DNA of 64,000 bases from Candidatus Thorarchaeota archaeon SMTZ1-45. GTDB lineage: Archaea > Asgardarchaeota > Thorarchaeia > Thorarchaeales > Thorarchaeaceae. Of this stretch, positions 9,476 to 40,812 are shown one piece after another. Below the pieces are notes generated by a model that saw nothing but the letters and a program-made list of their open reading frames with translations, did no database searches and was not told where the DNA came from. The stretch lies in NCBI GenBank assembly GCA_001563335.1, contig LRSL01000055.1, forward strand, positions 1 to 64,000, read 5' to 3'. Made by a program: the position numbers and the translations under genes. How positions within the stretch are numbered: position 1 is the stretch's first letter; each line of letters starts with the position of its first letter.

Positions 9476-10297
9476 CTAATCATTGAAGACGTTGTGTTCT
9501 TTATCAGGACAAGTGAGACATCGCTCTTTGTACCACTTGTAGACTTCCTTCGGTTGCTTTGCCATGTTAGCCTGTCGACTTGGACAAGTCCAACATGGCT
9601 TGTCAGGTGCCATCCACGAGTCACTATATTTAGCCCACCGAAAGTCTTCAACTATTGCAACACCTGCACTCGTTCCAATTCGATCAGCTCCAGCATCAAT
9701 CACACGAATTGCATCTTTGAATGAACGAATTCCACCAGCAGCCTTGACACCCATTGATGGACCAACTGTTTCACGCATTAGCCTAACATCATGTGGTGTA
9801 GCGCCCATTGGACCAAACCCAGTAGAGGTCTTGACAAAATCAGCTCCAGCCTCTTTACATATGATACATGCTTTTCGTTTCTGGTCATCCGTGAGGAAAC
9901 CCGTTTCAAGTATAACCTTGATATGTGCATCTCCAGAAGCTTCTACAACTGCTTCAATATCACGTTTAACAAGGTCATAGTTCTCATCTCGCATGGCTCC
10001 AATATTCATGACCATGTCAACCTCTTGAGCTCCAGCACTGACAACATCAGCTGTTTCGCAAGCTTTCACCTCAGGTGTTGTAGCGCCAAGAGGAAATCCT
10101 ACCACAATACAAACCTTCACCGAGGTGTTTCTCAGAAGTTCCACAGCATATGCAGTATGAACTGGATTGATACAGACCGCTGCAAAATTGTAGATTGTTG
10201 CTTCATCACACAGTTGTTTGATCTTCGCTTTGGTTGATTCTGGTTTGAGAACTGTATGATCAATATACTTGGCTAATTTTTCCACTGTGAGATCCAT
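9476..10297 (-). CDS. deoC: Deoxyribose-phosphate aldolase with Cys-rich C-terminal extension
   Basis: IDHT.LKP, VGFPLG, KVILET, FVKTSTGF, VKAAGGI, RIGTS. Confidence 0.95.
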   Translation of the reverse strand: MDLTVEKLAKYIDHTVLKPESTKAKIKQLCDEATIYNFAAVCINPVHTAYAVELLRNTSVKVCIVVGFPLGATTPEVKACETADVVSAGAQEVDMVMNIGAMRDENYDLVKRDIEAVVEASGDAHIKVILETGFLTDDQKRKACIICKEAGADFVKTSTGFGPMGATPHDVRLMRETVGPSMGVKAAGGIRSFKDAIRVIDAGADRIGTSAGVAIVEDFRWAKYSDSWMAPDKPCWTCPSRQANMAKQPKEVYKWYKERCLTCPDKEHNVFND

Positions 10298-38826: not shown

Positions 38827-39111
38827 ATGTCAAAGAGTGACGTTCTAAAAGGCCGTAGAGGCGTTGTCACAAGTTATCGTAGGGGAAAGCACCTACAGCA
38901 TCCAAATCAAGTGATTCTGCTATTCAATGAGATCAAGACCAGATCCGAGGCTTCAACACTTGTTGGTCGTAGGGTGAAGTGGATCTCGTCTGAGGAGAAG
39001 GAGTTCCTAGGCAAGGTGCTTGGTCCACATGGAAACAGTGGGGCAGTTCGTGCTAAATTCCGGACAAATCTACCCGGGCAAGCTATTGGAACCCCAGTTG
39101 TCCTATTATAG
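38827..39111 (+). CDS. rpl35ae: 50S ribosomal protein L35Ae/eL33
   Basis: YRRG...Q.PNQ, G.V..PHGNSGAVRAKF..NLPGQAIG. Confidence 0.95.
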   Translation: MSKSDVLKGRRGVVTSYRRGKHLQHPNQVILLFNEIKTRSEASTLVGRRVKWISSEEKEFLGKVLGPHGNSGAVRAKFRTNLPGQAIGTPVVLL

Positions 39112-39152
39112 ACAATCACGAACTTTTATCTAGCTAGCAGAGGATGCCTAAT

Positions 39153-39226
39153 TGGCTCCGATGATGCAACTGGCTATCTGAGGGCAGAGATGCCCAGCGA
39201 CGATTCATAGTTAGACTGAGGAGCCA
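39153..39226 (+). ncRNA. Box C/D guide sRNA
   Basis: Terminal stem TGGCTCC/GGAGCCA; C box ATGATG; D' CTGA (39178); GGGCA-GAGA-TGCCC hairpin; C'-like CGACGA; D CTGA (39216); two 11-12 nt guides; TTTTAT ~25 nt upstream. Confidence 0.8.
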
Positions 39227-39267: not shown

Positions 39268-39846
39268 ATGCTTGAGTTGTTGCTGTATTTCACTGCATAC
39301 TTTCTTGCAGGGCTCTCACTCAAGCTAGGAGATGACCTACTGGATGAGCTTGATAGGTCTCAACTGGCCATGATTCCTTTGTCTATTGCGGGACTTCTAT
39401 TTGGCCTACTCATGACAATCTCAGAGTGGGACTTGGTTCTACTGACCAGCATAGTGATTGGTGTCTTAGTTTCAGGGAAAGTGAATAATCCCCAATTCAT
39501 TGTGGGGTTTGTGTTAATCTTCGGAACTTTGCTAGTGGTTGGAGTTCCAGTTGTTACAGACTGGTTAGAGTGGATGACTTTACTCATCATTCTCTTCATG
39601 GCAGCAGTCCTTGATGAGAAAGGAAATGATTGGGCAGATAAGGAGAAATCACCATTGGCCTTCAAAATGTTCGAGTATAGATTCGTGCTCAAGATAGTTG
39701 TGCTTGGCCTTGTGATACCTTGGCCAATGTTTCTTTTAGCAGCAATTGGACTTTGGATCTTTGATCTTGGGTATGAATCTGCTGGGTGGCTAATAAAAGG
39801 ATTATCAAGCAAGAGTCTTGTAAGCAAGACTACAACAGACATCTAG
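39268..39846 (+). CDS. Conserved archaeal membrane protein
   Basis: About 6 TM segments; K..DD..DE, GKV.N, LDE.GN, F.YR motifs. Confidence 0.7.
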   Translation: MLELLLYFTAYFLAGLSLKLGDDLLDELDRSQLAMIPLSIAGLLFGLLMTISEWDLVLLTSIVIGVLVSGKVNNPQFIVGFVLIFGTLLVVGVPVVTDWLEWMTLLIILFMAAVLDEKGNDWADKEKSPLAFKMFEYRFVLKIVVLGLVIPWPMFLLAAIGLWIFDLGYESAGWLIKGLSSKSLVSKTTTDI

Positions 39847-40812
39847 AAAAACAGGATCTAGTCCCTTTTCTCGGGCGAAGTCTACCCCTTCTTGACTTAT
39901 CAGAGCAATTCCATTTACACCACTCAGAATCGCATATCGGTCGGTCTCAATTTTGTGTTTTCCCATTGGTCGAGCACATCCCAAGAGAAGTGGAACTTCT
40001 TTCATTCCTAATCTTGCAATGGTGATTATGCGTCCAATGTCCTCAGGAGCTGGTGGGTTGATGTCTTGCATTGGTGTCTTCCTCAAGGGACTCAACGCAA
40101 TAATTACAACTGCAGCTGGATTGCCTTGGGCAATCATATCCAAAGCTTCAATCTCACCAGTCAGTCTTCCATAATCGAGACCTACGAGTACATGAGGCAC
40201 AGTTGGTATACCAAGATCCTCAAGGATGTCAAGTGAACGTCGCATCTTCTTTGGTCCATCTTTAATGTGATAGACCTCCCTTGAAACACGCTCACTGCCA
40301 ATGACATCAAGCATTGCTGCGTCAATCTGGGCCTCTGCTAAACCTCGAGCTGTTTTTTTACTAACAAGACCAGTATGCACTACAATCTCGAGGTCTAATT
40401 CAGATTTCACCCTTTGAATTGAGTCAGTGAATCGCTCCAGAGGGACGTATCCCTTTGAGTCAGACCCGCCACTAATCAATACACCTTCTCCACCCAACTT
40501 TTTGATTTCTTGGCACCTATCAAACAGACTCTCAGGAGTGAACGTGGACTCCATTCCCTTCAAAAGCCGTCCATCACAATGTTCACATTTGAGAGAACAT
40601 GATGTGCCTGTCACACTGAGTGATGCAAAGTTCTGGGAGCTTACTTGAACATGGTCTTTGATCTCATATGGATATGCTGTTGGGCTATAGCATAGAAGGT
40701 CATGATCATAGATAATTAATCGCTGATCAAATCCTTCTTTCATTAACTCCTTAAGCTCATTGGATGATGCTTGTAGGACTGCATATCCTTCATTGATTAT
40801 ATCAAAGCTCAC
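39805..40812 (-). CDS. lipS1: Radical SAM protein, archaeal lipoyl synthase LipS1-type
   Basis: SVTG.SCSLKCEHC, LISGG, GCAR and C-terminal CC motifs described for LipS1 (TK2109 family). Confidence 0.72.
   Translation of the reverse strand: MSFDIINEGYAVLQASSNELKELMKEGFDQRLIIYDHDLLCYSPTAYPYEIKDHVQVSSQNFASLSVTGTSCSLKCEHCDGRLLKGMESTFTPESLFDRCQEIKKLGGEGVLISGGSDSKGYVPLERFTDSIQRVKSELDLEIVVHTGLVSKKTARGLAEAQIDAAMLDVIGSERVSREVYHIKDGPKKMRRSLDILEDLGIPTVPHVLVGLDYGRLTGEIEALDMIAQGNPAAVVIIALSPLRKTPMQDINPPAPEDIGRIITIARLGMKEVPLLLGCARPMGKHKIETDRYAILSGVNGIALISQEGVDFAREKGLDPVFLDVCCSLAYKTLA

Follow-up and report, generated by a model that had tools for sequence, protein, structure and literature searches.

The 74 nucleotides at 39153-39226 on the plus strand are a real, conserved gene for a box C/D guide RNA. 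The window, that is, the whole stretch of DNA that was analysed, comprises 64,000 nucleotides of a thorarchaeal genome. The identity of the gene follows from the anatomy, the conservation and the covariation of the element. Very probably it encodes a dual-box C/D sRNA of 74 nt, located just 3' of the gene for ribosomal protein eL33 and having its own promoter, whose D guide would direct methylation of the adenosine in helix 69 (H69) of 23S rRNA that is equivalent to A1913 of E. coli. From the anatomy, conservation, covariation, complementarity to rRNA and protein genes described here, we infer that the RNA is transcribed, assembled into an RNP and used in methylation.

In the proposed mechanism the terminal stem would unite boxes C and D into a k-turn, and the internal hairpin would likewise unite boxes D' and C'. 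Both k-turns would be bound by L7Ae, and Nop5 and fibrillarin would assemble on them. Inside the pre-ribosome the 12-nt D guide would pair with the H69 loop of 23S rRNA, and fibrillarin would methylate the 2'-OH of the adenosine facing guide position 5; this nucleotide is equivalent to A1913 and corresponds to Am2256 of yeast. The D' arm would most likely pair about 21 nt further 3', at the equivalent of C1934, where its role could be that of a second, weaker methylation guide or that of a helper contact steadying the region during folding. Genes for the protein partners are present in the host genome: those for fibrillarin (290.7 bits) and Nop5 (Nop, 219.7 bits) are adjacent on contig C26, and two genes of the L7Ae family are found on contig C24.

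Anatomy and genomic setting

The original prediction described a terminal stem, C/D and D'/C' boxes, two guides, a hairpin with a GNRA loop and an upstream TTTTAT. Direct reading of the sequence finds every one of them, with the RNA itself confined to the 74 nt at 39153-39226 on the plus strand. The features of the RNA and its neighbours are, in order:

38827-39111, + strand: upstream neighbour, the gene for ribosomal protein eL33 (L35Ae; Pfam Ribosomal_L35Ae, E 2.8e-21)
39124-39129, + strand: TATA-like box TTTTAT, 24-29 nt upstream of the 5' stem
39153-39159, + strand: TGGCTCC, 5' strand of the terminal stem (stem I of the predicted C/D k-turn), pairing with 39220-39226 over 7 bp
Between the 5' stem and the C box, + strand: spacer, a single G
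39161-39167, + strand: C box ATGATGC, i.e. RUGAUGA with the final A changed to C (6 of 7 consensus positions)
39168-39177, + strand: D' guide AACTGGCTAT, 10 nt, directly 3' of the 7-nt C box
39178-39181, + strand: D' box CTGA
39182-39195, + strand: internal hairpin GGGCA-GAGA-TGCCC, occupying the canonical-stem position of a C'/D' k-turn
Between the hairpin and the C' box, + strand: a single A
39197-39203, + strand: C' box GCGACGA, with the GA dinucleotide retained and C at both U positions
39204-39215, + strand: D guide TTCATAGTTAGA, 12 nt, with T39211 at the N+5 position
39216-39219, + strand: D box CTGA
39220-39226, + strand: GGAGCCA, 3' strand of the terminal stem, pairing with 39153-39159
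39268-39846, + strand: downstream neighbour, an ORF of 192 aa outside the RNA, with no Pfam match

The C' box GCGACGA is two positions off the consensus, and the spacer from C to D' is 10 nt, i.e. shorter than 12. Between D' and C' a loop of 3-9 nt would be expected, whereas the spacer here is a co-varying hairpin. The terminal stem has 7 bp in the window, and only the inner 6 bp are conserved in relatives. The single-sequence fold of the element is unremarkable (z = -1.6).

The RNA starts 42 nt after the stop codon of eL33 and ends 41 nt before the ATG of the 192-aa ORF, and all three lie on the same strand. Across relatives the start of the sRNA is almost always found about 45 nt past the eL33 stop. 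At the position of the TATA-like box CGAAnTTTTATC is conserved in 19 of 20 copies from the genus; further, a TATA-like hexamer starting 28-31 nt upstream is present in 52 of 80 distinct upstream regions. TTTTAT is likely the sRNA's own archaeal promoter. Convergent with the 192-aa ORF there is an ORF of the radical SAM family (39808-40812 of the window, minus strand, Pfam E 1.1e-8), which is unrelated to the sRNA.

Conservation and covariation in Asgard archaea

Using BLAST, a full-length copy of the sRNA is found in 19 of 24 relatives from the same genus. A covariance model (R1), built from an alignment (A1) of 39 distinct copies, gives the copy in the window a score of 98.8 bits, and with it one copy per genome is found in 25 of 26 genomes from the same family. 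Over 151 Asgard genomes R1 reports one match per genome in 40, distributed by family as 25 of 26 genomes in f1, 1 of 1 in f2, 11 of 13 in f5, 1 of 5 in f17 and 1 of 1 in f18, and none in the other families. Of 400 Asgard genomes 101 contain a strict pattern made up of the C' remnant, the guide and the D box, compared with 5 matches in the reversed control; here the families are f1 (64/85), f5 (27/31), f13 (2/3), f24 (4/14), f33 (1/4), f18 (1/1) and f9 (1/135). The sRNA family spans at least eight Asgard families: f1, f2, f5, f13, f17, f18, f24 and f33.

The sRNA adjoins eL33 at 70 of 73 public eL33 loci. A strict sequence pattern caught 46 of these, and the covariance model added 24 of the remaining 27. 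Two of the three eL33 loci without a match are cut at the end of a contig. A covariance-model survey of Asgard genomes had been suggested in the original prediction, and it finds the RNA conserved in relatives.

To describe the structure we used a larger alignment (A3) of 78 distinct copies, in which double-sided changes are seen at all 13 modelled pairs. The fraction of cells that pair is 96.3% in A3, against 82.1% after shuffling (none of 500 shuffles reaches the observed value) and 12-48% when the partners are slid, percentages that should be read with the caveat that A3 was itself fitted to the covariance model. In the terminal stem compensatory changes occur at 6 of the 6 inner pairs among the 78 copies, and in the internal hairpin at 5 of 5, or at 4 of 5 when the first alignment is used.

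The boxes covary as well. Position 6 of the C box and position 1 of the D box, which make up one of the 13 pairs, change jointly from G-C to U-A in three distinct copies, while position 5 of the C box and position 2 of the D box change jointly from U/U to C/C at six loci (L060, L066, L105 and L124-L126; L122 repeats the sequence of L066 and is left out of this count). The C/D k-turn is supported by this covariation; its geometry, in which tandem G-A pairs are followed by a U-U and then a G-C pair, is drawn from the literature.

Relatives carry either A or G at the first position of the C box, matching the R of the consensus. Their D' box varies (CCGA, CAGA, CGTA, CCTA, CTTA), and their C' box can be GAGACGA, AGGACGA or the canonical ATGATGA/ATGACGA. 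The G of C' that faces position 1 of D' forms a C-G pair in all 39 aligned copies, and the core of the D' guide, GGCTA, is invariant across the same 39.

One clade belonging to the same genus but to other species (L018-L020, L050 and L053) has CGTA as its D' box and TTACGA as its C' box, with the D guide and the C and D boxes intact. In this clade CGTA and TTACGA would form an ordinary Watson-Crick helix and not a k-turn, and its sRNA may be turning into a single-guide form.

Predicted targets of the two guides

Reverse-complementing the D guide gives a sequence that includes TAACTATGA, the second A of which lies opposite the N+5 nucleotide, T39211. In all five 23S genes from the same genus H69 reads GGGAC-TAACTATGA-GTCTC, and in each of them the H69 loop pairs with the D guide at 10 of 10 positions (guide positions 2-11). 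The 23S of the host is assembled only from about position 2191 on (contig C43), and H69 is therefore taken from these five genomes. Covariance searches of the host genome returned no 23S or 16S; the partial 23S, located at the start of contig C43 and beginning 3' of H69, was found by BLAST with the 23S of a relative.

E. coli numbering confirms the target that had been proposed, the second A or A1913 equivalent: TAACTATAACGG begins at 1911 of E. coli 23S, which places the target at A1913. The length of the duplex has to be corrected. The original prediction gave 9 bp with two unpaired bases, but guide position 2 also pairs with the rRNA of the genus, and the duplex is therefore 10 bp with only position 1 unpaired. 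A duplex of 10 bp is the maximum that a box C/D RNP accommodates.

When the guide is slid along the 23S and 16S of a relative and the 26 tRNAs of the host, requiring a Watson-Crick pair at N+5, H69 ranks first (10/10) and the next-best site scores 8.0. None of 1000 shuffled D guides reaches 10. Among the 26 host tRNAs there is no target better than the rRNA matches for either guide. Further, 10 genomes contain an sRNA copy as well as a 23S gene, and in all 10 the best match of the genome's own guide is H69. The original prediction had named a better target elsewhere as grounds for giving up the assignment; among the rRNAs and tRNAs searched there is none.

Of 78 distinct copies, 76 have CATAGTTA as the core of the D guide. 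One exception, CATGGTTA, retains pairing by means of a G-U wobble, and the other, TATAGTTA in genome G050, is mirrored by a change in that genome's own H69. In two other Asgard families H69 contains G-UAACUAUAA, and the guides carry both matching changes. H69 of G050 and G036 reads GAG-TAACTATAA-CTC, and the corresponding guides, TTATAGTTAC, are altered at positions 10 and 2, which restores a perfect 10/10. The target differences in G050 are a G to A in the loop and a C to G before the loop, both mirrored in the guide; the same two changes recur in guide and target of G036, which represents another family again. This covariation between guide and target is the strongest evidence for the predicted assignment to H69. 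The two nucleotides beside box D vary freely (GA, AG, GT, GG, AA), and 77 of the 78 distinct copies keep the guide in one register (TTA, two nucleotides, D box). Most likely the D guide directs 2'-O-methylation of the A1913-equivalent adenosine at the tip of H69.

The target of the D' guide, which the original prediction left unidentified, can be narrowed to two candidates with equally good matches, the C1934 equivalent in 23S and a site in 16S. In the window the D' guide forms 8 of 10 pairs, with two adjacent mismatches, with GTAGCCAAATG of 23S, 21 nt 3' of the D target. With GTAGCCGGTTTG of 16S it forms eight Watson-Crick pairs and one G-U, and position 5 faces the C of the GUAGCCGG motif. 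The version of the D' guide that is in majority in the genus makes 9 of 10 pairs with the 23S site, and versions with an extra T make runs of 9-10 contiguous base pairs there, G-U included.

Shuffled D' guides score 9 or more in 112 of 1000 cases, and scores at this level being so common, the assignment in the window has no statistical weight of its own. The C1934-equivalent assignment gains weight from other families, since their differing D' guides also match the same strand and rank it first. In G028, G051, G099 and G050, which represent two other families, the top-ranked D' match lies 27-32 nt 3' of the same adenosine: at 27 nt downstream of the D target there are 10 of 10 pairs in G028 and scores of 9.5 in G051 and G099, and at 32 nt the score is 9.0 in G050.

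In four copies, L148 (G050), L152 (G046), and L169 and L170 (G048 and G036), the H69 guide is kept and the D' guides are complementary to a CUUG(C/U)CGG strand about 31-32 nt downstream. This match was scored against the genome's own 23S in G050, and in G046, G048 and G036 it is assigned by sequence likeness. The D' target of such G050-type copies would be the equivalent of G1945, which corresponds to the yeast Gm2288 position if the offset from A2256 is counted without indels. Gm2288 is listed as a methylation site in PMC11542601.

Another candidate for the D' guide was rejected. The majority version matches ATAGCCAATTG perfectly over 11 nt, at about 2530 of the 23S of G017, but this motif is part of a hairpin loop that varies: the four other 23S genes of the genus lack it, and the fragment from the host reads ATTGCCAATTG. 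Further, the site fits the D' guide of G017 itself poorly (7/10). In three further genomes with a D' guide of the window type no usable 23S was found.

The 23S genes of three genomes, G025 (L153), G036 (L024) and G026 (L021), break off a few bases past the 3' strand of H69, with the conserved GTAGCCAAATGC of G025 reappearing some 800 nt further on. These breaks are probably introns. Their location is precisely between the sites predicted for D and D' in this sRNA family, and a two-armed guide could conceivably hold the flanking exons together. Outside the window, the only assembled piece of host 23S (C43:1-1303; L140, L141) starts about 150 nt 3' of H69. Directly after CCCCAGGGGTAA it has an insert of about 790 nt with an ORF of 238 aa, in which a LAGLIDADG_3 domain is recognised (E 4.7e-9). 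This insert is probably an rRNA intron that carries a homing endonuclease. The relative G009 has the same junction sequence.

Alternative roles and relation to known guides

A real box C/D RNP could also sit at H69 and the neighbouring strand as a folding chaperone without methylation, or with only one catalytic arm. The D' arm is imperfect in most Thorarchaeota copies, with 6-9 Watson-Crick pairs of 10 in 64 of 78 distinct copies (counted over all families), and in the clade with CGTA and TTACGA an ordinary helix would replace its k-turn. Conserved guide pairing without methylation has also been discussed for Pyrobaculum, in the available text of PMC6009581. However, pure chaperoning would not need a register that is fixed in 77 of 78 copies. 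In the D arm, moreover, N+5 forms a Watson-Crick pair, the duplex extends over the full 10 bp and the C and D boxes are canonical, and these features suffice for methylation in reconstituted archaeal systems. We find the chaperone role improbable, and if it holds anywhere it could be for the D' arm especially.

The position of the element, between eL33 and the next ORF on the same strand (42 and 41 nt away) and with the eL33 synteny kept throughout the family, would also suit a cis-acting k-turn that binds L7Ae in the 3' UTR of the eL33 mRNA or in the leader of the downstream ORF, instead of a guide acting in trans. Archaeal sRNAs can be processed out of longer transcripts, according to the part of PMC7994747 that was available. 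However, the loci L134-L136 from another Asgard family carry the same RNA with no eL33 within 1.5 kb. At L035, L045, L054 and L093 several hundred extra bases separate it from eL33 (about 50 at L098 and L099), and three of the four far-separated loci have a TATA-like box upstream. Nor would a cis element need nine invariant nucleotides that are complementary to H69 and co-vary with it. Regulation of eL33 by such a k-turn is thus very unlikely, since the guide is kept where eL33 is not nearby and co-varies with rRNA.

We assign similarly little probability to a self-contained structured RNA with some other function, in which a helix between the two guides (CUGGCUAU with AUAGUUAG, including two G-U) would produce one long kinked hairpin. 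Both the single-sequence fold and RNAalifold draw this helix, and a run of 6-9 pairs is possible in 66 of 78 distinct copies, those of the Thorarchaeota type. However, none of its pairs shows a compensatory change: five of eight never vary, and in one the changes are confined to a single strand. Where the D' guide differs, which is the case in 12 distinct copies (other families and L051), the longest run is 3-4 pairs, and the D guide is unchanged. Lacking covariation and absent in other families, the helix was rejected as a conserved structure. The complementarity between the guides is an expected by-product, since the rRNA target of D' (UAGCCA) and the D guide (UAGUUA) differ by transitions only.

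Read as a box C/D guide for H69, the RNA resembles the archaeal dual-guide sRNAs of Pyrococcus, Sulfolobus, Pyrobaculum and other archaea, as they are described in the available text of PMC4644070, PMC6009581 and PMC7994747, in the order C, guide, D', C', guide, D and in its length (about 70 nt). It also shares with them a 12-nt D guide that follows the N+5 rule, a host that encodes L7Ae, Nop5 and fibrillarin, a predicted rRNA target in the hotspot of helices 68, 69 and 71, and two guides that would aim at neighbouring rRNA sites if the D' assignment is right. Excerpts of PMC4644070 give these three helices as predicted archaeal methylation hotspots, dense around A1912, and excerpts of PMC6009581 state that about 45% of Pyrobaculum sRNAs have both guides aimed at most 100 nt apart, a spacing that is typical for sRNAs of archaea.

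There are also differences. In contrast to the k-loop, which is the archaeal norm according to the same portion of PMC7994747, the thorarchaeal D'-C' spacer consists of a stem of 5 bp capped by a GNRA loop and would form a stem-closed k-turn. Unlike the textbook archaeal form, the thorarchaeal sRNA has a terminal stem of 6-7 bp. It further differs in the non-consensus C' box GCGACGA and in its host, an Asgard archaeon from sediment. Many eukaryotic snoRNAs likewise have an internal stem between D' and C'.

The predicted methylated nucleotide, the second A of UAACUAUGA or A1913 of E. coli, is the same as for yeast snR63 and human SNORD46 (U46), and a terminal stem with a k-turn is likewise common to them. 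We take SNORD46 to be the human guide for the adenosine equivalent to Am2256. That Am2256 in the yeast H69 loop is guided by snR63, as had been claimed, is stated in the available text of PMC2794176. The original prediction of an Asgard guide for an H69 site shared with eukaryotes holds in so far as the match and the covariation of guide and target support it; homology to snR63 or SNORD46 was not detected, since a search of 39153-39226 with its flanks that admitted E values up to 10 gave no match to their Rfam models. At the gathering score there are no Rfam matches in the window, and the best weak matches are to generic C/D models: sR22 with 18.2 bits (cut-off 40), SNORD83 with 18.2 bits (cut-off 35), and SNORD109A. 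Identical guides can arise independently since a guide must mirror a near-universal rRNA loop, and shared descent cannot be shown.

It is conceivable, if rather unlikely, that the family is an archaeal forerunner of the snR63/SNORD46 lineage and that guided methylation of H69 was already present in the Asgard ancestor of eukaryotes. This reading is favoured by the presence of the sRNA in at least eight Asgard families and by the D' guide of one of them, which would point to the G1945 equivalent, by offset the position of Gm2288 in yeast. The table of plant-conserved sites in PMC11542601, which has no Pyrococcus abyssi methylation in the Am2256 row, was also counted in its favour. If it is true, the stem-closed C'/D' k-turn, the long terminal stem and the decaying D' and C' boxes of some clades would be steps toward the asymmetric, single-guide snoRNAs of eukaryotes.

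In concrete terms, the closest archaeal relatives of eukaryotes are predicted to methylate the same H69 adenosine as yeast, plants and humans. This adenosine is located at a bridge between the subunits which is in contact with the A-site tRNA. Comparison within the family also shows, in one RNA, a fixed primary guide that co-evolves with its target and a second guide that shifts along the neighbouring rRNA strand. The RNA is a new example of a well-known class and leaves the knowledge of how such RNAs work unchanged.

Metagenome-assembled genomes seldom have their box C/D guides annotated. A literature search, which covered work other than the supplementary target tables of archaeal surveys, found no catalogue of Asgard box C/D sRNAs, and Asgard archaea go unmentioned in the available part of PMC7994747, a review from 2021. 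Scanning the host genome with a crude regular expression gives three canonical dual-box candidates, including the one at 39153-39226, and none in the reversed control. One other dual-box C/D-like candidate from this crude pattern scan lies outside the window, at about 9479-9555 on the minus strand of contig C66, with C box GTGATGG, D' CAGA, C' GTGATGC and D CTGA, and a D'-C' spacer of 32 nt.
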